Source: Ancylonema sp.
Lineage: Eukaryota
DNA: 64,000 nucleotides
Assembly (NCBI GenBank): GCA_050230475.1
Contig: JBFLGF010000028.1
Location: forward strand, 1-64,000
Direction of reading: 5' to 3'
The position numbers were made by a program, and so were the translations under genes. The notes under the pieces were generated by a model. That model did not search any database. It had not been told where the DNA came from and saw only the letters and a list, made by a program, of their open reading frames with translations. Below, piece after piece: positions 30,901-64,000 of the stretch (its first letter is position 1; every line of letters begins with the position of its first letter).

Positions 30901-32657
30901 TGGGGCAGATGTTTTATAATCTTGGGACGTATCAGCAATTAGATATCTGTATGTAGGTAGATGTATGTAGATGTATGTACACGTACTTGCGCAGGTGTTT
31001 GTCGACGTAGTTACGTGGCTGTAAACAACTAGCATATCTGCGTGGTTATACATTCTTGATACACTGAAATAGGTGTGCTTGTATGAGTATGTCCTCAGCA
31101 ACGCTGTACAACAGTGTGGTCTGCAAGAGCCCTGTGAGCCTGATATGAGCCCAAAGAACAGAAGTAGAACCTCACTCAACACACATCTGACCCCCACCCC
31201 TACCAAAGAATGGATGTCGAGAAACAAATGGCAAACTGCATGTGCTGTTCTGCCACCTCCCTGTGGGTTGTTTTTATGTGTGAAGTCAAGATGGGGAAGA
31301 GACTCAAAAGGGCGCAGGTGTGCCAACGACAATGTCAAAGCCATGAAGGCATTCGCCCCCCCGCAAGTGCCAGTCTGCAGTTTATTCTGTAGTTTTGCGT
31401 GTGTGAGCTCCAACTTTTTGTTTAGACACGTTTGTTTGTTTATTTGTTTGTTTGTTACTTCTTTTTGTTTATTTGTTTGTTTGCTACTTCTGTTTGTTTG
31501 TTTGTTTGTTTGTTTGTTTGTTTGTTTCACCTTCTCGGGTGGTAGTAGCCCATCCTGATAGTCTATGGCCACTGAGGTGACTTTGAGAGTGATGACCATC
31601 AGAGTGCCCGTGTAATCCATGCCACCGCCCCGCCAGGTGTCGCCACTCAGATTCGCCACATGGCTGCAGAACAGAAGCAAATCAGAAGAAAAATAATTGG
31701 AGTCCTTGAAGAGGGATGACTACCGTTGGTATATAATTTTGAAGTCTGGCAAGCCTCTCGAGTACAATGAAACCTGTCAAATTAATTATGTGCAAATTAA
31801 TAACCTGTCTAATGCAATAGGAAATCTCTGCCCGATTTCCGGTTTGCACCCAAAATCTGATGTGTCAATTGATTATCTGTCTATACTACTATTTTCCCCC
31901 ATCCCGACATCATAACATCAGACAGTTTTTTACTGTACAAAAGTATGCGGAGAGAGGCAGAATATGGAGCTGGAACCGCTCTCTGCAGTCAGTAAAGCTT
32001 GTTATTTGTTTTGGGAATTTGAACTTCAGAGTGGTCAAAAGTAGGCATCCAGAATAGGCTTGTAAACAAGACCAAGTTTCGGTCCAGAAATGGTACAGCA
32101 GCTCAGCATCTCACCAGAAGACAAGAAAGGCAAATGACATCACAAATGTGATGTATCCACAATACTTCCGTGTCAGCTGCATGGCCACATACGCCACGAT
32201 GATGGGAATGTACAACTGGCGATTGGCTGCGTGCTCAAAACAATGAGAAAATGAAGATTGGTCACACTTACCATGTATCCCGATATAATTTTTTGGTGGT
32301 CATGGTGCTCTCGGATATCGCATTCGTCATGTCACAAGGACAATATGAATAGAAACATCTCCACACAACGACTTCATTGTATTGTCAGTCTTACAAACTT
32401 TTGCCTTTTGCATCTTCATGCAGGCGGTCGGAATGTGAGCAGGAAATCTTCTAGGCACCTTCATAACCTCCATAAGCGATCCAACACAGCACCCCTCCTG
32501 AGACAAACGCGTATAGATGTCTTCTGGTAGTCCCATAAACCCAGCGATGAATGTAATTGACGGGCAACGAGGCCAGGAAACACAGCAGAAACTGAATCAC
32601 AGAAGTCGAGAGCCCCAGGGACAATGCGATAGTGTCCAGCGCCGGGGTTTGAGCCAT
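27985..32657 (-). CDS. MBOAT-family lysophospholipid acyltransferase (LPLAT/LPCAT-like), multi-exon
   Basis: Exons: MAQTPALD..QFLLCFLASLP; GGMDYTGTLMVITLKVTS..YQDG; PSLLEFVGYLFCCGTILVGP; RWMYYFIW; WNMSVARWLR; YERL..TQGVSALWH|GLHPGYFLFF (catalytic His); last exon ..VYFIGTIP..ELKKSL* with a KKxx ER-retrieval end. Confidence 0.92.
30362..30625. repeat. Degenerate (ATA/ATG)n low-complexity tract in an LPLAT intron
   Basis: Trinucleotide-rich run that produces spurious poly-Ile ORFs. Confidence 0.9.
31428..31527. repeat. (GTTT)n microsatellite in an LPLAT intron
   Basis: Seen directly. Confidence 0.95.
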
Positions 32658-33479
32658 CTGATCTTAGACTATCCTTGGAGAGATTGCACAAACAATATTT
32701 GGCGAAGTGAGGTAGATAGGCTGCAGTTGAAAACGTGATCAAATGGAGAATAACCTCCGGGCATACGACTCTACACGTTATAAATATTCACTTAACTGCT
32801 GGGTATATTCTAAGACCAGGCTACTGCGGTGCGAAGATATTCGTAGCAACACACACTGCCCACTTCGTACCACACAGGTAGCGCTCACATCAGTGCATAC
32901 GAAGACAAAAACTACACCGTGATAGGACAAAACAGACCGGGATCAGACTCATCACCGACACAGCCGCGTCGTATACAATTCCTTTATTTTCGATTGACGG
33001 TAAGAGGTCGTGAATGGGCATACAGCGCAGGGAGTGTCGTCTGCTCCGAGGGTGTTTCTCATAGCACTATGGCCTTTCCCCACCTGAGGGGTGACGAAAC
33101 TCTGGTCCACGGTAATTTTGGGACAGGTGGCAAGCGCTAGCTTCTTTGGCGTCATACAGTAAACTGTCGTTATAACAAAAACAAAAACCAGGAAATTGTC
33201 GTTGTATGAGATATTAGACTGTGAAAAACGAACAACAACCAATGAAATGACGTTATAGGTATAGAGGGATCGATATAACGAGAGATTAGTGTTCGGCTTT
33301 GTGCTGCGCCTTGTTGACCTGATCATGTCAAACCCCAGCTCTGAGAAACTCTGGAATTGGCTCTCTTGAATTTCACGATAGGTCTGTAACCAAGGCTCTG
33401 TCACCTAGCTTTCAAGATCTTGAGGCCTTGAACTGAAGGGGAAATATATTGCACATCAAGTGACAATTCCTTCGTCACG

Positions 33480-36400
33480 ATGCTCATCTCGGAGATTCAG
33501 AGTGAGACTATGGCAGTCGATGAAGCCGTAGGTATGATTGACAATCTTATTACCGCAGTGGCAGATGTTGAAGTGAGCATACCTGCAGGGAGAGTCACTA
33601 AGGAGACCGTGGATGAGATTCGTCGTGTTGTTGGTACGCTGCCACCTCACATTACGTCCGAGCAACGGCTCCAGCTTTGGAGACTAAGTTTTCAGATAGG
33701 GAATGCTTGTGTTGAACATACGAATGGTCTTGAAGCAGGGACGTCTCCAACTACAGTCGATGCTCTCTTGCGGCATGTTGCCGCTGACATGCTTCTTGCT
33801 GCCGGGGAGAATCCAAGTGTCAGGTGCAGTCTGATGAAAATGGCGGCGTTTTTCTCAAGGACTGGTACTATGTGGCACGATCTGAAGGAACTGGACAATG
33901 CTGAAGTCTGCTTTTCGAAGGCAATGGAGTTATGTTCACACATGCGTGAAGACTTTGAGCAAGTGGGAGAGTCAAGCTGCAGCTCTCCAGCTGAAAAGAA
34001 GGACTTTGACCAGCTGAACTTTGAAATTTTCACCAATCGTGCAAAGAACGCCTGGCAACAAAGTCAACGAGCGCTAACAACCAGCCTGCTGAACAGGGCG
34101 ACCGCCATGCTTGCCAATCTTCCAGAGAAGTCCACAGACCTAGCAGAACTCTACCTGCATATTGGCAGGGCTCTACTCAGCAAAACTGGAGATCAAACTG
34201 AGGAAAAGGAATCTGGAGTTTGTGAATCGGTGACGTACCTTGAAAAAGCATTTGAACTTTGCACAGCAGCTCTTTCGTATCCTGGTCGCCACTTGTCTGG
34301 CAACGAACTTTCTCAAGCAAGTAGACTGAAGAGCAGAGTTTTAAGATATCTTGGAGGGGCTCACGTACAGAACGAGAACTGGCAGGCAGCTTTGAAGTGC
34401 ACTGCAGCTTTGAAAGCGTCTAGTGATCATCCGAGCATCCTATTCCTTGAAATTAGGGCTGAAGTTGGACTAGGACGATATAGTGATGCAGCACGAGAAC
34501 TGGAAGCTCTTGTGTCGCACAAAGGATGCTCACTAGAGCTTGGAGTTGCAGGTGTTGACGCTCTTTTGTCATCCAAAAATGTAGACAGCATCTTGCCAGT
34601 CTGCAAGAAATGTGTTTTTGATCTCCACGCCAGATTCCCTGATGACCCTAAACTTCTGGTTCTTGCACTGGAAAAACTTCTGAGAGGGAATGTTGGTGTA
34701 TCGAACACAAGCAAGGCTGCAATGGAGATTGCGCTTGAGATTGCCAACGCACAGAGTGTCAACAAGCTGATTGCCTATTCATCAAACATTCATGGGGATG
34801 CTACTGACGACCGTTCCTATTCGTCCTGCGTTTTCGTCCTTCTTTGGAACAGGTACGGTCAAATCGCTGCTCAAAAAACAGATACAAGCGAAAAACACTG
34901 TAAGAAGCAAAAAACTTCGATAAATATTTGTTTATTTCCGTTTTCCTAAAATTTCCTTATTTCTGTTTTAACTATAAGTTTTGTGTCGTCTCATACGTAG
35001 TTTTATAGTGTGATGCATGTTGACCCCAAGCATCCTTCAGTGTCTGCATCAATGACGCACACCTGTGTGAGGCTCGAAGGGTGTTTGCAACTTCTGTTAA
35101 AGTCACTTTGGTCTATGCAACCTCAACACAGGTGTGTGTGCGACCTCACCTCTCCTTACGTGCTTTGTTTCACTGATTGCAGCGGAGCAGAAAAGTTTCA
35201 TTTGAAGGACTGGTTCACAAGTCAGGCCCTGTTTGAGGCTTCATTATTGTACATTCCAGCCAAAGCCACACATCAAAGGGCAAAGACTTTGAGAATCATT
35301 TGTTTATGCCACCTTGGGGCTGGGAAGCACCAGGAAGCAAAGTGGTTTGTTGATGAGGCAGAGAAGGTAAGACCCTGCTTGGAAACTGCTGGTGTTAGTT
35401 ATTCATCATGTATCTCTGACCTCAGCTATCCTATGAAATCAACTTATTTGTTGATCATGCATTCCTTGGTCCTTCAGGTTTTTACATCTCAGGCTGAGGG
35501 TGACATGGTGTTCATGAGCGAACAAGCATCAGCGACAATGTATATATAGTTAGGGGCGGTTCTGATTTGGTTAGAGATGATCATGGGCGGTTATGGTTGT
35601 GTTAAATCTTATTGCAGTCAAGTGTCTACAATCACCCCTTGTGATACTCATTCAAGTCGTGGTTGATGCTCATATTTTATTGCAGCTGGATTCGAACATC
35701 GCGAGCACTTTCCTGAAGGTGCTGTATATATTATGATCCTTCTAATCAAACTTGTCCATCACATGGTGATTTACTTTTGCATCAATCGTCATTATTGCTT
35801 GAGGGGCAGATGATGAGTGCAGCCCTCATGGACCCGGTACAATATTACAACCGAGAGGTTTGGAAGGGCATTCTGTAATCAGTGTTGGACACATTATCTT
35901 TACCCTACTATTTCCTGTGTATCAAGTTTTCTTGCATACCAATTTTATAGCCTCAACAGGGCAACAGGGCAACAGGGCAACAGGGCAACAGGGCAACAGG
36001 CCACCGGGGTATTGAGTCATTCACAGAAGTAAAATGTCCCGAAAGGTGCTGCATTTGGATACATTTTTATTTTCCTGATCTATTTCCTTCCTGATGTTAC
36101 AGATTCATGCATCCTTGTTCAGGTGTGAAGGCAGTACTGATTGTGATTGGCAGGGACAGTGAACTGACAATGAAGGATTGTGTAAATGCTGTCAAAAAGG
36201 TTTGATGCAGCTTCTCAGTCAACTCGTCAACTTCTGTGTGCCACTGCAGTACAAGATCGCGCTTCAAAGCGATTCTCCAGACGAGGCGTCTGCGGAGGTG
36301 AAGAAAATGTCTCTGTGCCGCGATTTCGAGCCAGACTTCTTGACCCTTGCGTCCCATGAAGCTGTTGCCAGCAATCAAGTGTCCGTTGCTGTGGCAGCCC

Positions 36401-38431
36401 TCACCAGCCTGCTCAGTCTCAAGTGCACTGACCAAGCCCCAAAGATTAAGGAAGCCATCATCCTCAGGTACATGTCAGTCATCCACTGACGTGCTGAATG
36501 ATTGACATGCTGAATTACTGGAGGCTGTTGAGTCCGTAGCTGACACTGTTGTCTGCACACCTGCGCTTCCTCAGGAACATCATAACCCTCCTGTCAGAGA
36601 AACTGAGAAAGGGAGCAGAGGAGGTTCTCTCTTTTTTCCGGGACGCTCGAGAGCGTCTCGTCTCTAGCACTTTTACTGGTTTCTGTGGCGATGGCATTCC
36701 TGGAGAACAGGAAGGAATGTGGTTTGCGTCTTCGGCTTGGAACCATGGGATGCGACTGGGGAAGGAGGGAAGTTGGCGGCTTTCCTCAGAATTTCTTCTG
36801 GTCGCGGCTGACTTTTACCAGGTAAAACTACTTGAAGTACTCAAACTACGTTTACCAGGTCCTTCGAATATCCCATACATCAGTTCTCGTTACTTTTTTG
36901 GTTTCCGAACTAATGTCTGTATTGCATGGTCCTCCTTCTGCTCCAAATATGTATGTATGTGAATGCTGTATGCTTGAGACCCCTGCTTGCTGGAACTGCG
37001 CTGTGAGTGACCTGGAGTTATGCTGGAGGCCTTTTTCCAGGCTCTTCCGATCAGCATTGACAATCTGCGAGCAGAGAAACTTGCCCATATCCTGGCGTCG
37101 TCTGTTTTGTTGGAAAATGGAGAAGTCGACAGCGATAACTTGATACTTGTGAATAAGAGTCTGGAGAGGTGCAAGAAAGTGAGTGACAATTCGTCCCTCG
37201 TTTCCCGTATATCTGCACTCAGTGATTTGCAGCATATAATGCACCGTTCTCAATTTATTGAAACATCTTTCGTTCCATTCAGTGATCCAAATGATTGTAC
37301 ATGTGCTTTCAGTGTGATCCAGGCACCAAATACTTGCTGACTGGTGTCGACCTGACTTTAGGAGAACCGGAACATTCCCTTCAGTCTGTTATGGTGTGGA
37401 AAAGCAGAAGGCAGGGTGGCAGTTGTGCTCCAACCACAGAATCTCTTACCATGTTATTGTGTGCAGATTTACGAGCAGCTGTCTAGTAAACCTGGAGCAT
37501 CTGCTGATGAAGATGATACAGAGGTTTCTTTCAACTTGCTGCTCTTCAATGTCAAGCGGCGCCTGGGAGATTTTCAAGCACAGGAGAATATCCTCAATCA
37601 CTGCAGGTCATTGAGTGGCTGCACCTATGAACACTTTCTGATCATGGCGCAGGAAGCAAGTGAAGGAGAGGGCAACAATGTGTCGGTAGCCAGGGCAGCG
37701 TATGTAGCAGCAATGACACGCATGACTGATTCGCCGACGCCAGATTATAAAGCACTTGCTCAGATTGTCCGTAAGATTATTCGTCTAACGGATGCCGTGG
37801 ACAAGTCTGGAAAAGAAGTACTTGATTTGTACATGCAAGCAGAACAGATCTTGAGAGGGCTACCGTCAGGTGCGTACCCGAAAGAGGACGCGCAATGGCT
37901 TGTGTCCACTGCTTGGAACAGGGGCGCAATGCACTCGAAATTCGATGAGTTTGACCAAGCTGAGAGCTGGATGGGAGTTGCCATCAACATTCGGCAATAT
38001 GCTCTAGGTATGGAGTCGTCACTGCAATATGGGTGGCCAAACAGGGCTGGCTGGCTGGGTGACACATTTTTTTCATCCGTTGACTTTCTACTACATATAT
38101 TTTCGGCTCATTAAGGTTATCTGTGATTTGGTCATCATGTGTAAGTACGTTGAAACTGAATTTGTACACATAGTGGGCATGCACATCATGAGCTCGAACC
38201 TGTACAGACGTGTATCCCTAATTTTCTGTAGTGTACCGCCACAATTTCTGACACTCAATGTAAGGTAGACTAGACCGTTCTCCCTTATTGCGGTCACCTC
38301 CGCCTTCATTGCCTTCATCACCGCGTCCCGTATCTCCTCTTCCAGGTATGGAGTCCAGCGAGGCCTCAATGACAAATGCGCTGAAGCAAGTCCGGCTGGA
38401 CAAAGAGAAAGAGAGTTCACGCACAGACTGA
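33480..38431 (+). CDS. ZIP4: Meiosis-specific TPR protein ZIP4/SPO22/TEX11, multi-exon
   Basis: MLISEI start, long TPR-like exon 1 (LWRLSFQIGNACV..LRHVAADML..FFSRTGTMWHDL), LLWN, AKTLRIICLCHL, WFASSAWNHG, YPKEDAQWLVSTAWNRG. These match the layout of plant ZIP4. Last exon ends in TGA at 38431. Confidence 0.85.
35955..36001. repeat. (AACAGGGC)n 8-bp tandem repeat in a ZIP4 intron
   Basis: About 6 units seen directly. Confidence 0.9.
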
Positions 38432-40378
38432 ACACTCAGCTTGGCTGCGCATCAGGAAGTCTACCAGCACGTGGTGCAGGAGTGGCCTTTTTGTAGTTGA
38501 AGTCCTCCAAGGACAGTGGAGAAGGGCGGGGGTGGAGAAATTAGGGTGTAGTGGGCTGTAGTGTGTACCGTCTAGTATAACATTTTCCCAATTTCCAGTT
38601 TGGGCAAAATAATATTGTTCATTTGTCAATCAGCAACTGTGTGTATGGTCAGCTTTTCTCATACTAGAACACTAAGAGTGTTACTTCCAATGTCATGGGG
38701 AAGGAGCATAAGATAATGATAACTTTGTTTTAATTTCCTTCTTGTTTTCCCAATCATGTTCCCACGTGTTCAACCTGGAGTGTATGGAGTCTTGCGTACC
38801 CTTGGCTAGAACTGTGATAAGATTTACTTTCATGTTTCTAGTGTTTGACGGTTGTTTGGTAGGGTGGACATTACTTACAACTTACAAGTGCTTTGATATC
38901 TTGAGTTGAATCAGAGTTGTAGTGAAATGGAGGTCGATTTGCACCTTAGCCAAAACAATACATCACTGCGAGCACATGGACTCATATACCATTGTCATAA
39001 TTGCGAGGGGAGAATTTGAAATCCAAAACAACAAACCCCGGAAATGTCTTCTCCTCCTAGCTGTCTCTCTCCTCCCCTCCTCCAGATTCTACTCCTCTTC
39101 TATCCAACCATTTCTGAGCCAGAATGTTTTTTGCATACTGTGCTGTGATGTGACGACCCTCAAATGTAACGACCCTCAAATAAGTATGGAAACGGTGGGT
39201 CGGGTCAAATTGTTATTATTGTTTTTTGTGAAAAGTGGGTCACTAGATAATAAACGTTTATATTAAACATAAGTCAGGAGCTTGGGGGGTTTTTTATTGG
39301 GTGCGCAGGGGGGACAATTGGTGGTTCACTAGAATTCATTATTCAAATCCCGGGTCATTATGAGTGGCCAATACGTTATCACAAAACTTTGCATCAACAA
39401 ACTACTCTCTACTTATTACCATGGCGAGTCGGTTGCATATCCTACAATCAAACTTCCTCAACCCCATTCTCTTGCTCACACTATATGTACATAGGGTGCG
39501 GTGAATGGTTCTCCGGGGCGTCGAGCCATAGATAAAACTCATTAGCTTGTAAATATCGGATGGTGAGGGGGCGGTGTACCGTATTTTGGTACCGCGTCCA
39601 AGGCGTCAACATGAAGTTGCATAGACATTTCAAGGTTCTGTAACCATTACAAGATTATAACCGTGTCATTTTGGTCGCAGGAGCTACTATTACATATTAA
39701 AATGTAAACTTGGACATACGGACGGCGTCATATTCGAACGGTCAACTATGTTGTCGACTCTGTTGTTGAAACTCTTAGAGTGGATTCGCGATTAATCAAG
39801 CCCCAAATCCTCATGAAGATCACTTTGACGACTTACTTTGACGGTTCATATTACTTTGGTTTCCCTAAGCAACGATTCAACAAAAAAAATAAATGTTGGG
39901 AAGTCGGTTAAACTAGGGGGTCTCAAGGACCAAGGTCGACAAATCCTCGATCCATTAAGCTATGCCCTAAGGGGATCTTCCTTGATGGGAAGGAGAATGA
40001 CGGCCAAAAATGGTGGAGGTGCGTGTCGCACACCCTCGATGAACTGAGAACCGCGCCTTTAGGTGTGATGATTTTTCATCACACAAAAAGGGAAGTCAAA
40101 CGTAAGTAGGGCAAACGAAGAAGTTCAAACATCAAACTTTAACGAAACTTGCACTTTGCCGAATGCAAACTTTTATAGGGCATTCGCTTGAGGGTGAGCA
40201 AGAGGGGCATCAAGAGGAAGGAGGAGGGGGGGGGGGGGGGTGGAAGAGGGGGAGCGGTGGGAGGGGAAGGTCGTTGAAGACGATGCCACACACCCTCGAT
40301 ACACCGGGGGATTCGCCTTATGGTGTGTTGGAAACGGGCTTCATCAAGCAATGCGTCGAGGGTGGAAAAAAAAGTGAC

Positions 40379-43936: not shown

Positions 43937-45595
43937 ATGAAGACAAAGGAACGGGTGTCATACTTTTATGACGGTAAGCGAGGACGGCGGGGGAAGGGGT
44001 TGGGGGGGAAGGGGGGGTGGGGGCGGGATGAAAATAAAGACTAAAACGTATGATCGGCAAAGACCAGTACCACTTATCGTTGAATCTTCAGACCGTGTGT
44101 GCTAAAAGGGGTGAGACCATTCTGGGTGCAGCCGAGGTTGGCACCGTGCACTATGGCCCCAACCACCCGATGAAACCCCACCGCCTGTGCATGACGCACA
44201 GCTTGGTGTTGGCCTACGAGCTGCACCACAAGATGGAAGTGTATGTAAGTGGAGGAGACTGGGACTCGGGGGTCAGCTGGTCAGCTGTCGTACTGACACG
44301 TGGCAGCTTCTTATCGCGACACGTGTCCAGCGCCCCCACAAGGCGTACCCTCAGGAGCTGGCCCAGTTCCACAGCGAGGATTACGTCGACTTCCTCCACC
44401 GCATCACCCCCGACTCGGAGCAGCAGTGCCAGAAGGAGATGATCCGATACAACATGGGGGAGGACTGCCCCGTGTTCGACGGCCTCTTCGATTTCTGCCG
44501 CGTCTACACGGGCGGCACAATCGACGCCGCCCGTCGCCTCAACCACGGCCTGTCCGACATCGCCATCAACTGGTCCGGGGGTCTCCACCACGCCAAGCGC
44601 TGCTGCGCCTCCGGGTTCTGCTACATCAACGACCTCGTCCTAGGCATCCTGGAACTCCTCAAGTACTTCCCCCGCGTCCTGTACATCGACATCGACATCC
44701 ACCACGGCGACGGGGTGGAAGAGGCGTTCTACCTCACGGACCGCGTCATGACCGCCAGTTTCCACAAATTCGGGGACGGGTTTCCCAGGGTCCGGCGACC
44801 TCAAAGACATCGGCGAGAAGGGCGGGAAGTACTACTCCCTCAACGTTCCGCTCAAGGAGGGCGTGGACGACGGCGGGTTCGTGCGCGTCTTCAAAGCGGT
44901 TATCGGGGCGGTTATGGCGCAGTACCAGCCGGCGGCGGTGGTCCTTCAGTGCGGGGCGGATTCGTTGGCGGGAGACAGGCTGGGGAGATTCAACCTGTCC
45001 CTGGACGGCCACGCAGACTGCGTGAAATTCGTGAAGACCTTCAACCTGCCCCTGTTGGTGACGGGGGGGGGGGGGTATACGAAGCAGAACGTGGCCCGGT
45101 GCTGGACGTATGAAACGGGGGCGCTGGTGGACACCCACGTGGGGAATGAGATCCCGGTGAACGATTATTACGACTACTTCCGGCCGGACTACTTGCTCAA
45201 AATCCCCAACCTCAACCCACATGTGAGCCTCCTGCTGCACCTTCACCTGCTCATGCTGCTGTAGGGGTCGCCGAGTAACCGCCTTGTTTCCTCTTCCGCC
45301 CTTTTTCCGCCCCTCTGTGCTGTGCAGGACAATTTGAACACGAGGAACTATTTGACCAACGTCAGGAATTCTGTTTTGGAGAATCTGAGGCACCTGGACT
45401 GTGCGCCCAGCGTGCAAATGCATGAGGTGGGGGAATGGGCTCAACAAAGGGAAAGACAGGAAGAAAGAAGGAATGCAGGTTTTAAAGTTCTTCCATGATG
45501 AAAAACCCTTCCTTCCTTCCTAGCACACCTTCCCCCCCCCCCCCCCCCCCATTCTTGAATAACAATCGTAATCATGATAATGATGATGATGAAAG

Positions 45596-49044: not shown

Positions 49045-51010
49045 CTACACAAACGAAGGTTCCGTTTCACTTTCATTGTGAATCTCACCAGCCTTGCTTG
49101 CGTCGGTCTCGATTTCGCTCTTGCATAGAGGACAGTTGGCGTTGATTTTCAGCCACGTGTCCACACAGGATACATGAAAGTGGTGTGTGCACGGCAACTC
49201 CCTCAGCTCCTCTCCTTCACTATACGTCCCCAGGCAGATGCAGCACAGCTGGAGCCCACAGTAGAAAAACACACAAATATAAATAACATGAAACCAATAC
49301 CTTCCACGGCGACGGCATACTTTCTAACATTCAAAATGATACCACTCCTTCATTCAGGCCCCATGTTATAACTTCCTGTTCTACTATTGCCTAAGGCATT
49401 TGTGCCCTAATTGCATGAGAAATTCCCAGGCAGCGTGCATGTGATGATCCAGGCAGCTTCCCCTCACCGCATCCTCCCCCGCCACACTTCTCTCCTTCTC
49501 AGTGCCCGCCCACAACAGCCCTGTTCTGCCTGCTTCTGACGCAGACTCCGATACCCCCCTCTGACCCTCCTCTCCGACTTTGAGCTTGTACTTGTATGTC
49601 GGCAAGGCGGAAATCACGGCAGCGGGCGCACCCTTCCCCAACATGGGCTCATCCACCAGGGAAAAGAGGGCGAGGATGCACGGGAGGCAGAGGCAGATGG
49701 TGGCGCAGAGAAGGAAGGGGACCGCGTAACCGATGCAGCTCAGCGTGAGGAAGACGAGGCACAAGCTGACAGACAGAGGAGACCAATGGCGCTTTTGTCG
49801 TACACCAACACGACTGCTGATGGTGGTTTTGATTGATGAAGGACGGGCAAGGCATGATCCTAAACCTTGCGGCGGACCCGGCCAAGGCAATGCATGAGGG
49901 GACAAGAAGGTTTAGCAGCTTCTAAAAAAAAAAGTTTGACTGTTGAAAAGAACATGCATTAGTAAGTCGACTGGCAGCAGGTCGAACCCCCGACCCTACC
50001 TGTACAGATTAGGGGCATCAGAGGGCGCCACGTGTCCTCCAAAAACCCAAACATATCCAAGCACAAACCAAACAGCGAAGTAGATATCCAGAGTGCATTT
50101 GAAGCGATCCATGGCTACCACAACTCTGCAGCACACCAGAATCGCGAAAACAACAGTCAGGTCATTGGTGACGAGCACAACGCCGCTTCTGTCAAATCTC
50201 AGGCGACCAGGTACGGTACGCCCAAGGTTGCCACAGAGCTCACCTGTTTTCGTCCACCAGATTCAGGAGCCAACTTCCTCTCGGCCGGTCCCCTGACCTT
50301 GAGGATTGAGGCCTAACTGGCGGTCGGACCGCAGGAGGTTCCAACGGATTGTGTGGCTCAATCCCATCTGTTGAAGCAGGATCACCCCTCCTGCTACGTG
50401 ACCTTCGTGCACTCCTCCCAGAAGCCGCTCCTCTAGTGTCCCTGACCCGAGCACAACGCTGCAGGTATCTCCAGTACAGGAGGGGCAAAGTAGCCGTGCA
50501 GCCAATGGCATAGCCTACGACCCACACACCTACAGGGGCTTTCGGCTTCTCATTGGAAGAGAGGAGAAGAACAAAAAATGCAGCTACGACCTGACTGAGA
50601 GTCAATAGTAACTCAATAACGATCCATAAACCCGAATTCAGTATGCTGCTCCTGCGTCGCACTCCTGCGTCTTCATGAGCGACTGTATCTGCGGTCTCAG
50701 TCCTTCGAGACACCTCTTGGTCGCCAGAAGACCCTGTGGCCACATGTTCAGGCTGTGCAGTCTGACTTGAAGCGCTTGCACTAGGGGGCAGAGTGGCAGC
50801 ATCTGCTCCCTGCGTACAGCTCGCGGAGTCGTTGGTGGCGCCCGCGATGTTTCCTGGGCCATTTGAAAAAGTAAACGTGGACAAATTGGACGCAGCATCG
50901 TCGCTCGTCGCTAAATTTGAAATGACCTCCACCATGGGAGCCAGAAGAGGTATTGCTGCTTCAGCGGCGGCAGAGATACTAGAGTGAACAGTCGTCGAGT
51001 CGACTGCCAT
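49045..51010 (-). CDS. Transmembrane RING-H2 E3 ubiquitin ligase, 4 exons
   Basis: [52 protein letters not shown]-like [91 protein letters not shown] (C3H2C3 RING-H2). Confidence 0.93.
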
Positions 51011-51690
51011 TTGCCGCTACGCAATGTAAGGTTGTGACAATCGTACTCCAGTTATTTGAAGCTCATTGAACGTATTAAACTAGACAGACCTTCGTGAAAG
51101 TGCGTCCAAAAATATTGAATAACCCGAGGCCCGATGCAGGGCGCACTAACACCTACACGATCTCGTAAATACACGGCTAGTTATGACAGCGTACGTAATA
51201 TTGCTGTAGTTCAACCCTTTCCGCTGCTTGAAGCGGAGCCTGTTGAGATGCAAGCAGCCTCGGGAATAAGCACAGGAACAACCTCAGGAAACGGTTCTGA
51301 TGGGGAAAGCGTAATCTATCAGAATCATACCCTAATCTAAATTTCATAACCTGTCCTCGCTCAGAATGCGTACGTATGCTGACGTAAGGCTGAATCTGTT
51401 TTCACTAATTTTTGTTTAAATAAATACTCAGACGCAGACGTCAAATCAGGTACCGGCTGGCGGTCTGGCCGTCAAATTACCCGGAGGGAAACCTTCACAG
51501 CATGCATGGGGAGTTCGTATTTCGACGCCCTAATAAGTATTTTGACGCCCCTTTCCACTGACGGGGACCGTCCATACGGTTCGAACAGACTTGGTGACCT
51601 GTGAGCCGTCGGTGTGTCGTATTTTTCTTTAGATTCGACCGATTCTCGCTGGGCAACGTGGCTGTCGCTGACGCCAGTACTGGTGTCGGA

Positions 51691-52737: not shown

Positions 52738-54137
52738 GAATTTATATTATTTATTACGTGTAGGTTAGGTTTGTTTGAAATTTAAGCATATACATTTATT
52801 ATGTATATTTTTTGTTTTTTTTTTTAATATTCTATTTTTGGAAGGAGGCAACATCTTTTTTTATGCAAAAAGTAATGTTATGTCGATTATCCACTTGTAC
52901 AATTCTTGCATACCGTACTGGGCACCCTGAATGATTTATGCTTTTCCAAAATTAATTATTTTCGTAATGATTTTTCAAAATGATCCCGGGATTCCGTTAG
53001 TTATTATCGATGATTTCTGGTAATGATTCCATGAATCCGTTAGTTATTATCAATGACTTTTGGGTATGATTCCAGATTGTAGGAATAAAAAGCGTAAAAG
53101 ATTTCCTTGTTTAGGAATAAAAAATCGAATGATTTGTCTTTATCTGGGCCATTCTTGCATATTTACCGTACATTTGACGTCACAAGTACACGTGGTAAGC
53201 ACTCGTACCAGTCGAGATATCTTGACCGGCCACAATTGCGTCGTTATGGATGGTCTTAATTTGTCGTGTAGCGCATCTAATCGGTAATATTTCCCATATC
53301 GTCGTAGTGTAGGGCCCGGTACGTAGTTTCTGACGTCGTAAATGTCGCTCGTCCAAAATTTTGTCATTTTGCACGTGCCTACTTTGTCGTGTACCCCGTT
53401 TCATCACATCTAGAGTCACATCCAGGAGCCCCCGAATTTCCCGAAAATTTTCCTAAAACGGGTTTTATTAATGATTTTGAGTGTCCTTTTTCTATCATGT
53501 GGTAATTAATTTAAATTATTACTTTCGGGTTTCAATAATTAATTGAAAATCATTTATGGTGCCCCGTACGGTATGTTCAAACATGTTAATGAAATACTGG
53601 ATGGCGCAGATTGTGGGATATCATGGAGCCGCTCTGCCATTGGGTACTCTTGTTAATGCAACTAGGGATGTCAATCCTAACGGACATTGTGGATTTCGGG
53701 CACTTTCGCTAGCAGCGACGGGTAGTGAAGACAACTGGAAGGTTGTTCGCGAGAGCATGACGCTACACCTTAGGGACAACGAGTCCCTATTTCGGGACTT
53801 CTTCGAAACGGACTTCGAGTCTGTATGTAAGGGGGTGAATTTCTATGAAGAACTTGCCCTCCAATTCGCATGGTTCCAAGTCCCGAACATGGCTATATTA
53901 GCCGCAAACTTATATCATAGACCAATCGTCGTTATTGGACGTATAACTGCTTGAACATATGGAAGATTTGTACAAGGGGATAATCGACATCACATTACTT
54001 TTTGCATACAAAAATATCTTGCCTCCTTCCAAAAATAGAAAAAAAAAAAAAAAAAAAAAAAACATTATAAACGTATTTGCTTAAATTTCCCCTCACCTAC
54101 AAACAAATCCTAAACACGTAAGAAATAAGATAAATTT
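52738..54137. mobile_element. Mutator-like non-autonomous element with ~180-bp inverted repeats enclosing an OTU-domain fragment
   Basis: 52738-52915 is the reverse complement of ~53955-54137 (e.g. CTATTTTTGGAAGGAGGCAA..ATGCAAAAAGTAATG..TGTCGATTATCC). Confidence 0.7.
53556..53954 (+). pseudogene. OTU-like cysteine protease domain fragment, transposon-borne
   Basis: DVNPNGHCGFRALS..GSEDNWKVVRESM..W..VPNMAILAANLYHRPIVVI matches the OTU Cys-box layout. The ORF ends at the right inverted repeat before any His box. Confidence 0.65.
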
Positions 54138-54616
54138 GCCGTCGTGTTTACTTATGTGTGTATGCCAGTAATAGTAGCGAAAGTAATGTGAAAAAAATGA
54201 TGTGAAAATATGATTGGACATGTTCCGCGAGAGCACAGAAATAATATAAAAATTAAATTATAAAATAGAAAACATCATCAACACCATAGGATGGTAGACC
54301 ATACCATGAACCCGATGTATGTGGGGGGGGGGGGAAATGAAACCGATGAAGTGAGTTGATGAATGATGAAAAACATGAGATTGAAAGGCATTCATGAATA
54401 AAGAAGATAAGATATTGCTTTCGAATGTTTTGGACTGCCATTTTTGCATTCATCATAGTGTTCAATACAGGAAACAAAAAAGAAGGGAGACAAGGGGAGA
54501 ATCATGATAACAAGTTTTCCTCGCGGTGAGGCACTCCGTATGGCACGACCCAGAATCACCACGCGATCAGTTCGCAATTGCGCGAAGATACTGCCTACAT
54601 TGGTACCAAGCATTGT

Positions 54617-57600
54617 TGTCATGACGCTAGAGATCGTTAAGGGTAAAACCCCTTTGTAACAATATCCAGACCTCTCTAGTAAAATACCTTGTTAGCAACA
54701 ATCAGATTCGATATAAAGATTTCATGATTTTGTGTGAAGTTAGAATCAGTACTCTGCAAAATCCAACAACTTTTTGTAAACTCGAAAATAACGCGTGGCG
54801 TATTTTCCGAGTATAATATCCAGCAGTCGTACAACTTAGACTGCCTTAGCGCAATTTTCGATTTTTCAGCGCTTAGCGCAACTTTGTTAATCGACGATGA
54901 TATTTCTGACTTGTCGATATTATCTCGGCGATAAAATCCAGCCGTAGAATTGAATTTTTAGCGCCAAGATTAAATATAAATTTCTAGAGTACAGCCTGTC
55001 GATTAACCATGTCGATTAACTCTAGTTAGTTTTTACGATTAGACGATCGTAGCATAAATACATTTTCATCGTACTGATCTGTTACTGCTTCCGCTGTCAG
55101 ATTGCGCCGTCAAGAAAATTTCAAAATATCTTCTCTTCAAATCCTGTCAATTGTATTCTCTGAATTCTGCAACTCCTGGCTGATGCCAGTTCTTGCCCTC
55201 ATATCTGTGTCTTGTCTACGATTACTCGTGCGACTACCGTCGACGAATTCTGTAAGTTGACCGAAGTGACCTTCGTAACTTCGTGTCATTACTTGTTATT
55301 CAGCTGACGCTCTTACTGAGCCAGCCTGTAAACTTGATTGTTTACCATCACATCTTAGTACTGACGCTCTTACTGAGCCAGTCCTAACCGACTACCCCGT
55401 TGTTGACGCTCTTACTGAGCCAGAACTATTTTGTCGATTTACATCGATCTGTTACCGCTCGTACCGAGCCAATACGGTAACGACGCGCAACCACTTGACG
55501 TTCTAACTGAACCAACAAACCACATCCATCAATCAACATCTGTCAACGCTCCGTTTGACAACCGAACTTTCTACTCGAAAGTTTACCTTTCGGTTGTCGA
55601 CCTCAATATTCTGCACGAGAGTATTCTGTTTACCATCAACAATCATTTCCATACTTTCTATTGTTGATAGTAATTGTCGACTCGCCCTCGGCGTCAAGCA
55701 GTGTTCCACACATTCACGCACGAGAAAGTGTGATAGAATTAGCGTAAAACCTAGTTCTCAGCAGAGACTCAATCTGCAACCCAACTTCAATCAGACCAAC
55801 GGAAGTCTTATCACCGCAGAAAGTCAATTTAGTACCAGAATTTGACCATTATTTTTTTTCACCTGTTTCAATGATCAGTGCTGTCAACCAAGCAACGAGT
55901 CATACACTTCTCCAGCAACAAGCTTCGGTAGCAGAATCCAAATTCAATGATTTATATTACTAGAAAGACATGATTCAGAAAGCAACCAACATCAGTTCTG
56001 GCTTCCGATACTTCAAACTTGGACAGATAGCGGAACAGATTGAGACCCCGGAACAGATTGAAACCCACACGACGGTCATCCAGGCCTTTGAACCAAAGGT
56101 ACATGTTCAAATTCTACGCAAGTATCGACTACAGGAGTGGGAGCAGGTGTTACCAAATCATCTTCGCAGCACATCTACACACAACTGAGCAACAATGGAA
56201 AGACAACATGGTTAAACGGAACATCAACGACATCATAAACACCGCTACTGCTGAAATCAACGCACTCTCCTACTCAGCAATGCCGATGGACGAAACTACA
56301 CCAGATCTCGCCATCGCCATCCACATTTCTCAGATGGAACGAGTGGTGCAATCAATCATCGAACGAATGAGCACATCGACATCAATCCACTGGACTGCTA
56401 CACCTACCAACAACAACGAGGTCAGCAGAACTTCAGACCACGAGACAGACTGCGAACTTCTCCCAACCAGAAGTACGACACTACCAGAATACGACTATCG
56501 GGACCAGGACCACGACCACCATTACAAGACTACCATGAGAGAGATGCAATGCTTCTTTTGTGGACAAAAAGGACACACTATGTCAAATTGTCCTCATCGC
56601 AGAAATTTACTACTGGATTCACCACAGGGAGATGTACCACCACATACATATCCTTACCACCACAGGCTACCATGCCAAAACCAACACCTGCACTATCTGT
56701 TGCAGGACCACAAACAAACAAACCACCAGTAATACCATGTGACGCACGATTGACAACCAACTGGCATATACCAATAAGTGACAATTCCAAAGGAATCATT
56801 ACCATTGGAGGGGAACCACCAACAGTTCTCATCTATGATTCAGGAGCAGAAAATGTCATGATTGGGTCAAGATTTACCAAACAATTGGGCCTCACATCAA
56901 CCGACTTGGATCAGGGAATTGAATATATTACTTATGAAGGAAAAAGTCAACAATCTTTGGGCACAACCAAAAAGAAATTTACCATCACAATCGGAGAAGG
57001 AAATAACCAAACTTCTGTATAGACCAAACTTCATCTCTCACCATCTCACAAATTCGACGTACTACTTGGCAGCACATTCCTCGCACCCATCGGAGGAATC
57101 ACTGATCTTTGGAGTCAAGAATTTCACTATCGGGTGGACTCGGACCTCGGAGGATACAAGAAGGCATCGATACCAGTTCGCTACAGTATACCACATACTG
57201 CGAGTATTCAATGTCAATACATGTCGACAGGAGAAACATATACTTCAGTAGATACTTTCATGCAGGAACCGCATCTTGCGTTATTAAATTCTTCTGAGGA
57301 CGATGATGTACTCTCTGTATTTGAATTCAATATTGCCAAACATGGTTTGTACTCAGAACCAGAATACTCATCTGATGCATCGCAAGAAAAACCATACGAA
57401 CAAAACTTGCAAGAATGGGAAACCATTACCATGGTCTATTTCGCCACTACCAAACACACAGATATTCGTCAAGCCAGTCGACCACAATTGAACATGGCAG
57501 CGAAATGTCTGAACCAAGTTAACGAACACCATGCAACCAACCGCCTCAATACTTTGCGCATTCACAGTGCTTCCTATCTGCGCAATGCTATCGACAAAGC

Positions 57601-57751
57601 CAAAACATCACCATTACCACCATGGACTGAGTGGAAGGGTATACCAATTCGTGACGCGGTTCCTATCACACCAGACTACACCGCACGTTTTGACCCCGCA
57701 CTGCATAATGGACTACATGTTTGGGAACCATTTGGGGGCATGAGTTGCAGT
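54617..57751 (+). mobile_element. 5' part of a Ty3/gypsy-like LTR retrotransposon: LTR, gag with CCHC knuckle, retropepsin, start of a putative C5-DNA methyltransferase; interrupted at 57751
   Basis: TGTCA start. CFFCGQKGHTMSNC knuckle. LIYDSGAENVMIG..FDVLLG aspartic protease with one in-frame TAG at 57020. The same frame continues to GLHVWEPFGGMSCS, then the copia LTR begins. Confidence 0.75.
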
Positions 57752-58206
57752 TGTAGGAATTATATCGGATAGCGATGTTTGCTAGTGTGCTAGTCCGGAC
57801 TACCGGTTAGTGTAACCGGTAGGATTCCTAGGGTGTGCTTATATTGAGGGACCGGACTTCTGTCCGGGCACCCGAATACGACGTTTCGATTGTGCCGTTT
57901 GTAGCACGTGCGGTCTAGATGGTTCCGAATCTAGACGTTATGTCTTGTCAGACTGTCCGGCATATGCCGTTGTCAAGATCTGACTGTTGTTGTGTTTTGA
58001 TAGGCTGACGGTCCGTCGATACGACCGTCGGCACGCTTTTGTAGATTCTGTTTTGGACGAGGCATCGTGGTATACCTACACGATGCCGACCATTCAATAT
58101 TATTCTTCCAACACAATACTTGTCATTGATCATTCTTGAGAGACGTAGTTCCTTGTACGGAAAGATTCACTCGATCTCACACACGTATCACGTAACATTG
58201 CTAAAA
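57752..58206 (+). repeat. Copia 5' LTR (~455 bp; right boundary inferred from the PBS)
   Basis: Direct repeat of 63752-64000. Ends just before the primer-binding site. Confidence 0.85.
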
Positions 58207-58220
58207 GGTCATGGGCCCAC
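58207..58220 (+). promoter_or_regulatory. Primer-binding site complementary to the anticodon arm of initiator tRNA-Met (half-tRNA priming)
   Basis: GGTCATGGGCCCAC is a 13/14 match to GGTTATGGGCCCAC, the reverse complement of GTGGGCCCATAACC in plant tRNA-iMet. Confidence 0.75.
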
Positions 58221-61200
58221 AGGCGGTCTAGTTAAAGACGCTCTGTCAATAACTACAGGCATTCCACGCGATTCGCTGCTAAGAGACTCGGGTTGAGGTT
58301 ATTAAGTACTGCACGTAATCCTTCGAATTGCGCTGCCAGTGACTGAGGTGTGAGCTGCGCTGCGAAACACGCTCAAGAAAGCAGCTGAGAGCTGATCATC
58401 AGAAGAATTTAGCTGCTGCCTAACATGACGGAGAAGTCTCGTACACTTCACAGGAGCAGACTATAAAGGATGGGCTTTTAAAATTAAGTTCGGTCTGGCA
58501 GACAAGGAGCTGCATGACATTGTCATGGATTGGGGCAAATCCGAGGCAAGCGGAACCTGTCGTGTCTCCACCAGTCACGTAGGATGAGCTCGATACGCTG
58601 GATGCCGCGGACGTCGCTAGAACGGTCACGGCACGCACCCAGCTCATCGGTCGACAGACTCTCCTCGAGAGGTCTGGTCGAAGAAGAATATCGTTGCGAT
58701 GGCATACATCGTCAAACACCTCCAGACGGGGGAGCTGACGCATGTGAGAAACTGCACGACTGCTGCAGAGATGTGGGAGGCCCTGAAGTCTTTCTACGAC
58801 ATTTCAGGGAGCCATCGAAAATTGCCAACGCTGGAAGCAGAGCTCACGGCGATTATCATGGGAGAAGCGGAGGACCTGAGCGACTTATATTAAGCGACTT
58901 CAGGAGCTGCACGATCGTCTTGGGCACCTGGGAGAGCCAGTAAAGCCTGCGAAGCATTTTTGAACTCCCTTAACACTCGCTACAGCTCGCGCGTGGAGAG
59001 CGTGATGTCTTGGGCAGTTTCTGCGCTAGCACTCTTCAGCACTCTTCACCATCCCTCAGGTTGTCAGCACTTTGTCAGCTAGGGCGACCGACGGGAGGTT
59101 TGCAACGACCGAAAGAGAGGGGCGCTGCCAGGAGGGCAGCAGGCCAATTTCGTGGGAAAGGGGGGTTACTCGGGCAGCTCTGGAGCTGGCCCAAGTCGAC
59201 CAAGTGGGAGTGGCGGTCCCGGAAGTCGCGACATGTCGAGAATTCAGTGCTACAGCTGCAACCAGCACGGTCACCTGAAATCGGACTGCCCTTCACGCGC
59301 AAATGAGGTGCCATGGCTGCAACCAGATCGGCCACAAACTGTCGCAATGCGAACAAGCAATAACAGGGGGGAGGTGGAAGATCGGCTGGACAAGGAAATG
59401 GCAGTCCGAAACTCAAATGCAGATACTGTGATAAGCTCGGACACACATTGGTAGAATGCATGAGGCGTAAATCTGACCTGGCATTGGCTGCACCTGTTCT
59501 AATCTTCGTGATCAAGCGCAGGCTAGACTTGCTGCACGTCTAGACACACCCTTCGATGCATCCAAATCCCTTGCCTATGCAACATTCTCATCTGACGCAC
59601 GGATTTCCATGGCAGCTGGAACTGATTGCTCGCATATGTGGCTTGATTCAGGCTCGACCGGTCACGTCTTCATAAACAGAGACCACTTCGTCGGTACGAC
59701 ACCAACGTCCCGATGCAGCACTCATTCATCCACACGGCTGATGGCACGCCTCACAAGGTCGAGGGGACAGGCACGTTCGAGTGAAGAACGACGACTCCTT
59801 CTTCGTCGTCCCTCTCACTGCTCTGCACGTCCCTACATTCGCTGCGACCCTGGTGTCCACCGACTGCCGACTGCCTCGTCCAGAGAGGTGGGCTGAGCTT
59901 TGCCCAGACCCCACATGGTCCTAAACTCACTAAGAATGGACAGAAATGGGCTGATGTCAGCAGGCAGAGGAATGGTCTGTCATTGCTGCATGCATCTATC
60001 ATCTCATTGCTGCATGCATCCATCATCATGCCTGGGTCCATAGGCATGCTCTGGCATGGCCATGGCAAGCTGGGTCCCTGGTATACCAGCCATGTCATAC
60101 ATGGCCAGACGTGGGGACATACCAAGACTTAGTCAGGAAGAGTTGACTGAGGTCAGGGATTGTGAGATCTGCTGTCTGGGGAAAATGGGACAGAGGGGTC
60201 ATGCTATGGCTAGCGATGATGTGGCCACTATGCCAAAAATGGGGAGGTTGCATCTAGATCTGATAGGTCCTTTTGGTGTTAGATCAATGCACTTTGATTA
60301 TGCACAGACAGGGATAGAGGTCAATTCTAGACTGTCAACAGTATCTCTTCTCAAGCACAAGAGCGATGCTCTCAGTCAAACGCGCATCACTGTACAGAAA
60401 CTGAGGTTGAGAGGACTGCCGTTAAAGTCGATCAGGACAGATAGAGGAGGGGAATATACCAGCAAGGAGTGGAAAGGCTATTGTGAGGATAAAGGAATCA
60501 AACATGAACTGACTGCCCCCTATAGTCCTCAGCAGAATGGAATGTGTGAAAGGTTAAACCGAACATTGATGGAGAAGATGAGATGTTTGCTGATGTGGTC
60601 TAAACTGCCTAAATCGTATTGGGATGTGGCACTGATGCATGCAAACTGGCTAAGGAACAGGAACCCCACTAGTTCATTGACAGGGGGGATACCTATTGAA
60701 GAGTGGACGGGACGTCAGAATCAAACTGGACAGAAGTCACACATTTGGCTGTCTAGTGCAATATTGCTAGCTGGGCATGATAAAAATAAACAAGGGGACA
60801 AGATGCTGCCAGGACTGCCTTTGGGGTATTCATTGGGCTGGCAGCAGATCAAGCTGGCTACAACATCTTCGACCCGCTTAGAGCAGGTGTGATGGTGCGG
60901 ACAGACGTCCGTTTCTTCGAGGAAGTGCCGGGGTACCCGAGACTCATGGGGGGGAGAGCTCCCCAGGTCGAGGCCAAAGCAGATGAACATTTTCTTCAGC
61001 TGTTCCCCGGACACGGATGAGAGCCCAAGGCTGGAGGGGTGACAGGGCAAGCAGCAGTGACAGCTGCAACGCCAGCAGCAGTACCAGCAGCAGTACCAGC
61101 GGCAGTCCCAGCAGCACTCCCAGCAGCAGCTCCAGCAGCAGTGCCAGCAGCAGCAGCCCACAACGACCCAGGAGCCCAGATCCCACCACTACAATTTCCG

Positions 61201-63751
61201 CCACCACCAGTTGCTGAGGTCCATCGCTGTGATTGAGCTGTCTGACAGCCAATCTGGGATCAACAACGGGATCAACAACGCACGTGTGGCAGGCGAGGAG
61301 GAAGAAGTCTAGGGAGGGGGTGAAGAGGGGGGGCAAGGGGTGAATGCTGGGCGCATAGCTGAGAGAGTAATGGGAAGGAGGAGGGCAAACTTTGCCCACT
61401 TTGGGGATGTGCTCTGATACGATGGGGAGGAGTTCGACGACAAGCAGCCATGCAGGACGAGGAGTGGGAGGAGGCTACATGCTTCCTCACAGGCTTCAAC
61501 GGCCCCTCTGCTGGATTCTGCATGGTGGCCATGTCTGCTGACTCCTCCGACCCTCTGACGCTGAACCAGGCCATGACGAGGCCAGACTGGGATCAGTGGT
61601 TAGTTGCTATCTAGGAGGAGCTGAAAAGCTTGGGGGAATTCAACACCTTCGAGGTGTGTGAACTTCCACCAGGTAAAAAGGCTGTGGGGTGCAAATATGT
61701 ATTCAAAACAAAATACACACCCACGGGAACCCTTGAAAGATATAAAGTCAGACTGGTCGCTCAGGGTTTCCTACAACAAGAAGGAGTTGATTATAATGAA
61801 ATATTCGCACCTGTAGTAGATAGTACCTCTATATCTCTTCTACTAGCTATTGCGAATCAAGAGGGTTGGATTGAACAGATAGACGTGGTGACTGCTTTCT
61901 TGCACGGACTGACCGAAGAAGTATATATGAAAATTCCACCATTTATGGAGATTGAGGGAGGGGCTGAGGGAAAAGTTTTGAGAATGAGGGTGTACGGATT
62001 GAAACAAAGTAGCAAGGTCTGGGGTGAGATGTTCACAGCCTTCATGCTCACTATAGGGTTCAAACAATGCATTATGGACACATGCATATACAGGGGCACA
62101 GGACAGTCACGGATCATAGTGGGGATACAGTAGATGATCAGGTGATAGTTGGTCCTAACACCATGGTCATTAAAGCATTCAAACAAGAACTATCTGGGAA
62201 ATTCAAAATGAAGGATCTTGGGGCCCTAACCCATATCCTGGGGGTGGAAGTGAAAAGGGACAGACAACAGGGGGTGCTCACGTTGCATCAGAGAGGGTTC
62301 ATAAGACAAGTTCTGGAACGTTTTGGCATGGCAGACTCTAACCCTACAAAACTACCCTTACCACCTGGACTGACATTTTACCAAGAAGATGAACCTCTAA
62401 CTCCCCCTACACCTGAACAGATAACTGAATTCCGGGAAAAAATTGGGTCACTCATTTATGCAATGAAACACACCAGACCGGATATTGCGCATGCACTGGG
62501 AGTACTGGCAAAACACATGGGGAATCCTGGGACTGCTCACATCAAATCCTTACACCAACTGTTCAGATATCTAAAGGGAATAGTGGATCACGGAATGTGC
62601 TACGTGAGGCGAAAGAGGCTAGAGATCAAGGGGTACTGTGATGCTAGTTGGAATAACTGCAGTATGACTGGGAAGTCGGTCACAGGGTGGGTCACTACCG
62701 TTGGGGGAGCTGCATTGAGCTGGAAGTCACAAAAACAGTCTACACTCGCACAGAGTACAGCAGAGGCTGAATATATTGTTGCCTGTAGTGTGTCTAAGGA
62801 ATGCTGTTACCTGAAGTCGCTCCTGCATGAGCTCAAACTCCCTAATGAAATCACAGTTTACAGTGACTCAACAGCCGCACTCTCAATGATCCAGAACCCA
62901 GTCTTGCGCCAGAAGGCCAAGCATTTCAATGTGGTGTACCACTGGGTGAGGGAGTGTCACAGAACTGGAAGGCTGAAGTATGTGTATCTGGCAGGGGCCA
63001 ATCAACCAGCCGATATGTTCACTAAGGCTCTTCCACAGGTCTTGCTTGACAGACACGGAAAGTCTATAGGTTTTGGGAGGGTTCACTGAAATGGGGGTGC
63101 ATATAAGATTCTGGGGATTTCCGGCTGCCATGCCATGCTATGTTTGGCAGGGGGGGTTCCGTTTCTTCTTGCAGAATGCACCTGTGGAGGGCTCTCAACG
63201 CTTGTCTATCCAGCTAAGTCACCCCACTCTTTTTCTGCCCTGAAAACACTAAAGGACACCTGAAAAGTTGCAGATCTGCTTGCATCTAGAGTTGTCAGTT
63301 GCTCATGAATTCTGACACATGTATTGCTATTCATATTATGGATGTTGTGTGAAAATTTCTTGTTTTGGTGAAGTTTTGAGAAAGTTATGAAGTTTTGAGA
63401 AAGTTATGAAGTTCTGAAAGTTGTCAATTTATGAGAAAGTTGTTATGTTTTGAGTATTTCAAGTTATTCGGAGAAAACTGCAGAAGGTTGACTTGTTGGT
63501 CATTTTTTGTATTGCACTAACTTGTGGTATTTGTTTGTATGTTCAGGGCTCCGGCCCGAAAAACGACTAAGGATCTGGAGCGATCGATTTCTGGAGTTCC
63601 GACGGCTTCCGATCGGCTGTTATTCGGCTGTTATTTTAGATATAGCACTATCCCATGGGCTATGAAATGGTTTCGCCATGACTTAGCTGTAGATAGGGTA
63701 GTCCCTTGGTTCTGACTCAATGCCAAACTTGGCATGGCATCCGAGGGGGTG

Positions 63752-64000
63752 TGTAGGAATTATGTCGGATAGCCATGTTTACTAGTGTGCTAGTCCGGAC
63801 TACCGGTTCGTGTAACCGGTAGGATTCCTAGGGTGTGCTTATATTGAGGGGCCGGACTTATGTCCGGGCACCCGAATATGTCACCCGAATATTGTTAGGT
63901 TATGTCCGGGCACCCGAATATGACGTTTCGATTGTGCCGTTTGTAGCACGTGCGGTCTAGATGGTTCCGCATCTAGACGTTATGTCTTGTCAGACTGTTC
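63752..64000 (+). repeat. Copia 3' LTR (partial)
   Basis: Matches the 5' LTR with ~8 substitutions over ~205 aligned bp plus a ~40-bp local duplication. Confidence 0.95.

Follow-up and report, generated by a model that had tools for sequence, protein, structure and literature searches.

A decayed, copia-interrupted gypsy-like retroelement with a probable C5 cytosine methyltransferase domain downstream of its protease

Introduction

Cytosine methyltransferases borne by retrotransposons have been published for few lineages. In Klebsormidium nitens, according to the available part of the report (PMC5890265), the element KnitGypsy-Dnmt3, of the Gypsy type and with DIRS-like repeats, encodes a Dnmt3 within its Pol; its expression in yeast gave no methylation, a result that the authors considered inconclusive. 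The same part of that report describes de novo CG methylation in yeast by SymbioDIRS-Dnmt3 of Symbiodinium. The accessible text of a 2019 opinion article (PMC6338049) restates the charophyte case and gives such elements as absent from tracheophytes, and a 2026 preprint, in the sections available, names “streptophytes (Gypsy-DNMT3)” as a known capture (bioRxiv 10.64898/2026.05.21.726589). The portion of PMC10952607 at hand contains nothing on retrotransposon-borne methyltransferases of this kind, and our literature search, which covered few subscription papers, found no further streptophyte or zygnematophyte cases among the papers listed.

Here we describe a locus within a 64-kb window (the whole stretch of DNA analysed) where the original prediction had placed a gypsy-like element carrying a cytosine methyltransferase between its protease and its reverse transcriptase (RT).

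Results

Structure of the gypsy element and of the copia inserted in it

The features identified at the locus, all of them on the forward strand, were the following:

54617–55870, + strand: 5′ repeat, LTR-like, and leader of the gypsy element; starts with TG, right border approximate
55871–56700, + strand: gag, decayed; stop codon at 55961–55963 and frameshifts; CCHC knuckle at 56547–56597
56798–57079, + strand: Ty3/gypsy-type retropepsin (YDSGA ... DVLLG); in-frame TAG at 57020–57022
57110–57709, + strand: linker of about 200 aa, common to the sister copies, without Pfam match
57710–57751, + strand: beginning (first strand and SAM-binding motif I) of a very probable C5 cytosine methyltransferase, truncated; assigned from sister continuations
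57747–57751, + strand: GCAGT, proposed from the sequence as a possible target-site duplication on the left of the copia, its right counterpart falling beyond 64000
57752–64000, + strand: decayed copia splitting the methyltransferase gene, with a 5′ LTR (57752 to about 58200), a gag knuckle, an integrase core (60299–60529), an RT (about 61640–62360) and a 3′ LTR that starts at 63752 and runs past the window end

The order of a gag knuckle followed by a retropepsin, as predicted, was recovered by Pfam searches, with PF00098 at 56547–56597 (E 2e-4, over the cutoff) and the aspartyl protease PF13650 (E 8e-5) in the frame as it stands. When the TAG codon was read as X, the protease matched PF13650 with E 8.7e-6 (over the cutoff) and PF13975 with E 1.4e-5, and PF08284 was also matched besides these two, in keeping with a gypsy-type protease. 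This TAG corresponds to Q in the sister protein P0003, and at the gag stop at 55961 most of the depth of other copies in the DNA runs shows C. The pol frame is not open, since the TAG lies inside the protease. As anticipated, the approximately 210 aa that follow the protease showed no match to RT, nor to any other Pfam family. The linker was 51–95% identical in eight comparisons among sisters, and the window copy lacks one codon at 57697, where other copies carry a 3-nt insertion.

The 14 residues encoded at 57710–57751 (GLHVWEPFGGMSCS) are the C-terminal ones before the copia border; these coordinates had been assigned to a quoted 20-mer, which actually begins at 57692. They include the motif I sequence WEPFGG, so that the window reads ExFGG and not the (E/D)xFxGxG form initially proposed.

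The Gypsy assignment is likely, based on the type of protease and on a 32% match (pairwise E 3e-23) between the protease region and P0020, a retroelement protein with gag, knuckle, protease and PHD finger. In P0020 (ENA, 15-kb contig), these parts are found in a single 1028-aa frame with the PHD finger at the C-terminus; no RT or methyltransferase match was detected in it, and it is perhaps a non-autonomous form. A primer-binding site could not be assigned to the gypsy element, as the PBS-like 12-mer at 55830 (8/12 match) is at chance level (2.4 per kb), and no second copy of the gypsy 5′ repeat was detected in the 64-kb window. Within this repeat, positions 55305–55428 hold three copies of a 25-base unit with the core TGACGCTCTTACTGAGCCAG.

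The copia LTR begins at 57752, which accounts for motif I being the only methyltransferase motif visible, as had been proposed. The inserted element matched PF00098, PF00665 (E 1.8e-10) and PF07727 (E 4e-39 and 8e-15), and its order, with the integrase before the RT (RVT_2) and LTRs flanking gag, is that of Ty1/copia elements. The LTR pair showed 198 identical bases out of 207 aligned, and the 3′ LTR (63752–64000) presents a 42-base insert, absent from the 5′ LTR, that is a partial duplication of the GTCCGGGCACCCGAATA unit. In the DNA runs, this copia family far exceeds the gypsy family in abundance, with an LTR depth of more than 1,000,000 in run X1. CG is strongly depleted in the integrase-RT region of the copia (o/e 0.36), and the terminal repeats of both elements are CG-rich (1.37–1.38).

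A multi-copy repeat family

Contigs of four DNA runs were compared with positions 54000–58300 of the window; X1 and X2 come from one sample, which may be the source of the window, and X3 and X5 from two other studies, the latter being a glacier metagenome. In 66 X1 contigs and 45 X2 contigs, the match to the window starts sharply at 54617, preceded by many differing flanks (agreement 0.34–0.36). The summed depth in X1 reached 310,000–680,000 in the 1.2-kb 5′ repeat versus 23,000–39,000 inside the element, and the repeat was 10–20 times deeper than the coding part in the DNA runs. This deep 1.2-kb stretch resembles an LTR that also exists as solo copies or in non-autonomous derivatives. The depth of the coding part is in turn far over the 109–167 of single listed X1 contigs, which suggests a family of roughly a hundred copies or more, bearing in mind that summed depth is not copy number. 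None of the RNA runs was listed as containing the window sequence.

Sister copies continue beyond position 57751

In each of the four DNA runs, some contigs part from the window sequence precisely at the end of 57751 (8 in X1, 4 in X2, 2 in X3 and 2 in X5, over positions 57560–57790), and in all four runs their loose ends open with codons for G-A-I. Translated by eye, they read G-A-I-M-N-L-E-A-G-N in X1 and G-A-I-M-T-V-E-Q-G in X3, with close variants in X2 and in X5, where the contig has 405 bases and a depth of 2.5.

Protein searches returned 16, 1 and 10 matches, in addition to cluster members, and the relatives looked up were ENA fragments. Two of the 16, the unrelated repeat proteins P0011 and P0016, were left out of the sister set. 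The sister P0021 shares 160 of 178 residues (90%) with the window peptide and extends 98 residues further, through TNTDID (motif II), NHDIS (motif III) and GPIDFIFAGWEC (motif IV), ending shortly past the latter. Motif I was found in nine of the 12 sisters examined, the remaining three beginning downstream of it; eight of these nine show WEPFGG and one FGD, with FGGxSCSG as a variant spacing. Motifs II and III were also seen, the latter as HDIS or NDIS, with D39-I40 invariant in alignment A4. Thus, the frame goes on from 57751 through motifs II–V in the sisters, which bears out the in-frame continuation into a C5-methyltransferase domain that had been foreseen.

Motif IV takes the form GWEC..S..(G/A) in P0021, P0023 and P0027. 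Of the G.PC motif expected there, the cysteine at the catalytic position is found but the proline is not, as it is replaced by E in the three sisters that reach this motif, versus P in HhaI, HaeIII and the phage enzyme described below. P0027 further shows a motif V-like D-E-R-F-P-Y-F-F-D-L in the same register as in HhaI. The peptides of three other sisters (P0010, P0019, P0022) finish with DGNV or DGDV; codon arithmetic suggests that this is G-W-E/G-C read in a shifted frame.

No motif VI, VIII, IX or X, RT, RNase H, integrase or 3′ repeat was detected in the sisters, because all of them are short fragments, mostly on contigs of about 0.5–2.6 kb. Longer relatives were scarce: none of 594 candidate proteins of 427–2000 aa was a homologue of the window peptide, and a profile search among proteins of 218–2000 aa gave one out of 2,817, with no full-length Pol. 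This negative result is weak evidence, since the searches need shared exact words. Scans for relatives at the locus level were negative in metagenomes (0/18 and 0/599 stretches) and genomes (0/599). Among viruses they gave 1/9, followed by 0/5, 0/18, 0/3 and 0/15; the single hit covered 25 residues on a tailed-phage contig that is otherwise unrelated, and was attributed to chance.

Nature of the domain downstream of the linker

The domain that follows the linker is, with high confidence, a C5 cytosine methyltransferase. Motif I of the window would be weak evidence by itself, at chance level, because the pattern [ED]xFxG turns up 14 times when all six frames of the window (127,996 residues) are scanned. 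PF00145 did not match the window peptide, P0021 had no methyltransferase match in Pfam or NCBIfam, and P0027 stayed far below the cutoffs of both TIGR00675 dcm (E 0.0023, 17.6 of 100.65 bits) and PF00145 (best E 0.16, 11.8 of 22 bits); the sisters scored with these models are fragments of the N-terminal third of the domain.

Searches in the Atlas gave a clearer signal. For residues 158–276 of P0021, the first feature match scored 0.95, with 185/256 in common, and PF00145 appeared on all four feature rows shown (30 matches), which belonged to viral and bacterial clusters. The structure neighbours of P0021 included a DNMT3A-like cluster (TM 0.67) and Streptophyta DRM-type ones (0.73 and 0.72), rows that lie below the bar for naming a family and derive from a model with pLDDT 0.54. 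Sequence searches against the PDB found no methyltransferase, and the AlphaFold models (pLDDT 32.9 and 39.7, with an empty fold search for the second) were too poor to provide evidence on the fold.

Among 50,697 phage records, the best tblastn match (E 2) was the start of a gene annotated with PF00145, whose product is itself near DNMT3A/B (E 4e-17). A profile of 10 sister fragments aligned to this phage protein along motifs I–IV (probability 92.8, 84 columns), and in a rerun the profile scored 51, versus a maximum of 21 in 92 shuffles and 10 for a neighbouring pfam01555 methylase. The pairwise E-value is flattered, because the phage protein was the best of all those records, at E 2, and the match backs the fold class and not the origin of the domain, as the target had been chosen for its resemblance.

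Identity among seven sisters was about equal in the domain (59–87%) and in the linker (51–88%). Conservation of the domain, judged here by comparing identities and not by dN/dS, is compatible with selection. The CpG o/e of gag-pol was 0.73 versus 0.78 for GpC, and thus there is no CG-specific depletion in this region.

Neighbouring features of the window

The host genome is that of a eukaryote, intron-rich and repeat-rich, and exons of MetRS, MBOAT, HDAC and ZIP4 genes were found in the window, as well as an exon of a CcmA-like ABC ATPase (TIGR01189, E 5.8e-9, below cutoff) and a transmembrane RING-ligase-like gene (49384–51016). A nuclear CcmA and this RING-ligase-like gene would be signs of a streptophyte and, together with the related contig of the glacier metagenome, make a streptophyte alga the probable host. 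Just upstream of the gypsy element, a 135-aa frame (53547–53954, + strand) has a weak resemblance to OTU-like cysteine proteases (PF02338, E 0.005), and is possibly a remnant of a Mutator-like transposon. At 44115–45264 (+ strand), two long frames that overlap encode a class I histone deacetylase (PF00850, E 2e-44 and 1e-31). Its GC content is 0.62 and it has almost no introns in a genome otherwise rich in them; this gene is possibly a retrocopy or frameshifted. The meiotic gene ZIP4/SPO22 lies at 33432–38114 (+ strand; Atlas 0.96, PF08631; the exon 33480–34898 was placed there, with no indication of lineage), which suggests that the host keeps meiosis. Decayed frames like those of non-LTR retrotransposons, with QGDPLG and ADD recognized by eye and no Pfam match at E 0.01, occupy 543–2156 (+ strand), and a direct repeat of 340 bases is present where the window begins. 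Finally, an intronless 339-aa frame at 22993–24012 (− strand) encodes several hydrophobic segments and has no Pfam match.

Discussion

The element belongs to a multi-copy family in which gag, protease, linker and methyltransferase motifs I–V follow in this order; the window copy is interrupted at 57752, after motif I, and cannot itself make the methyltransferase. The reading that we favour, with a probability of about 0.6, is that of a decayed, copia-interrupted copy of a gag-protease family with a C5 methyltransferase after the protease, likely of the Gypsy-DNMT3 kind, with an RT predicted downstream.

In intact copies, the domain would be made within the Pol polyprotein, from which the protease of the element itself would release it, and it would be packaged with the RT. 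SAM bound through motifs I–III, together with the cysteine of motif IV, would then allow methylation of cytosines, most plausibly at CG. The target would be the new cDNA before its integration, so that new copies would arrive with a host-like mark. This mechanism, including the methylation of the cDNA of the element by its own enzyme, is proposed by analogy and follows the model put forward in the available part of PMC5890265, with SymbioDIRS-Dnmt3 as the model case. The main doubts about it are the replacement of PC by EC and the lack of CG-specific depletion.

The chief rival, which we consider unlikely, accepts the same element but takes its enzyme for a weak or dead one, retained because it binds SAM or DNA and could thus hold or shield the cDNA or guide integration. 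The change to E of the near-invariant proline before the catalytic cysteine, in all three sisters where it can be read, points in this direction, as do the inactivity of KnitGypsy-Dnmt3 in yeast, from the available part of the same report (PMC5890265), and the absence of CG-specific depletion in gag-pol. However, the cysteine, the F-G of motif I, the aspartate of motif II and the D-I of motif III are kept across sisters that are just 55–60% identical, and the register between motifs IV and V is close to that of HhaI, all of which speak against this rival.

That the methyltransferase descends from an FDGMSCG-type enzyme of bacteria or phages, separately from the Dnmt3 capture of Klebsormidium, appears improbable to us. 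The FGGxSCSG motif I of sisters is like the phage FDGMSCG, and the Atlas feature matches were viral and bacterial; however, the phage protein was picked for its resemblance, at E 2, and is near DNMT3A/B (E 4e-17), the best Atlas structure rows correspond to eukaryotic DNMT3 and DRM clusters, and the taxa of Atlas matches are no sign of transfer, according to the warning given by the Atlas itself. We regard with the same scepticism the fuller scenario in which a Ty3/gypsy element independently captured a prokaryote- or phage-type methyltransferase that is active with its EC loop, multiplied to hundreds of copies in a streptophyte alga of cold habitats and pre-methylates its own cDNA.

A further possibility, to which we give very little weight, is that of a non-autonomous element or captured gene fragment, made of gag-protease and half a methyltransferase and devoid of RT. 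No RT was found in any sister, P0021 ends soon past motif IV, and in the distant relative P0020 the protease is followed by a PHD region at the C-terminus, with no RT. However, the sisters are short fragments whose truncation is to be expected from contigs of about 0.5–2.6 kb, and the in-frame fusion is kept across subfamilies that are 55–90% identical, making passive cargo unlikely. Lastly, a chance match to the motif, with no methyltransferase downstream, is hardly credible: the pattern does occur 14 times in the six frames of the window and no HMM match exceeded a curated cutoff, but the sisters carry five motifs, correctly ordered and spaced, the Atlas score was 0.95, and the profile score was well over those of the shuffles.

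Returning to the favoured reading, a Gypsy-type element with a C5 methyltransferase after its protease, the observation is real and largely known already, as the concept itself is not new. The Gypsy case of streptophytes is so far limited to one species, with an enzyme that showed no activity in yeast, and a second abundant family with several subfamilies would make selection tests and a fresh assay possible. The conserved EC in place of PC raises the question of whether this form of the catalytic loop is active or the enzyme is dead and repurposed. In addition, retroelement methyltransferases may be under-counted, because standard HMMs miss the N-terminal part of the domain.

Regarding the systems already described, the predicted kinship with published charophyte Gypsy-DNMT3 elements fits the account given in the part of PMC5890265 available. 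As in that account of KnitGypsy-Dnmt3, the methyltransferase is intronless, lies in a Gypsy Pol frame and is multi-copy and conserved between copies, and the present host is probably a streptophyte too. The key residues are described there as conserved, and the present element shows GWEC at motif IV; DIRS-like repeats are described for KnitGypsy-Dnmt3, whereas a 5′ repeat is all that is visible here, the comparison being made with a description (PMC5890265, same part). SymbioDIRS-Dnmt3 and SymbioLINE-Dnmt likewise represent C5 methyltransferases encoded by retrotransposons, in these cases of the DIRS (tyrosine recombinase) or LINE types according to the sections of PMC5890265 at hand, unlike the retropepsin and gag knuckle found here. 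The EpiLTRs of Euglena gracilis and Cymbomonas tetramitiformis are also LTR retrotransposons with a DNMT but, in the accessible part of the preprint, they carry DAM and a chromodomain too and their DNMT is sister to DNMT4; moreover, in the Cymbomonas EpiLTR the DNMT is located at the 3′ end of pol, whereas in the element described here it follows the protease (bioRxiv 10.64898/2026.05.21.726589).
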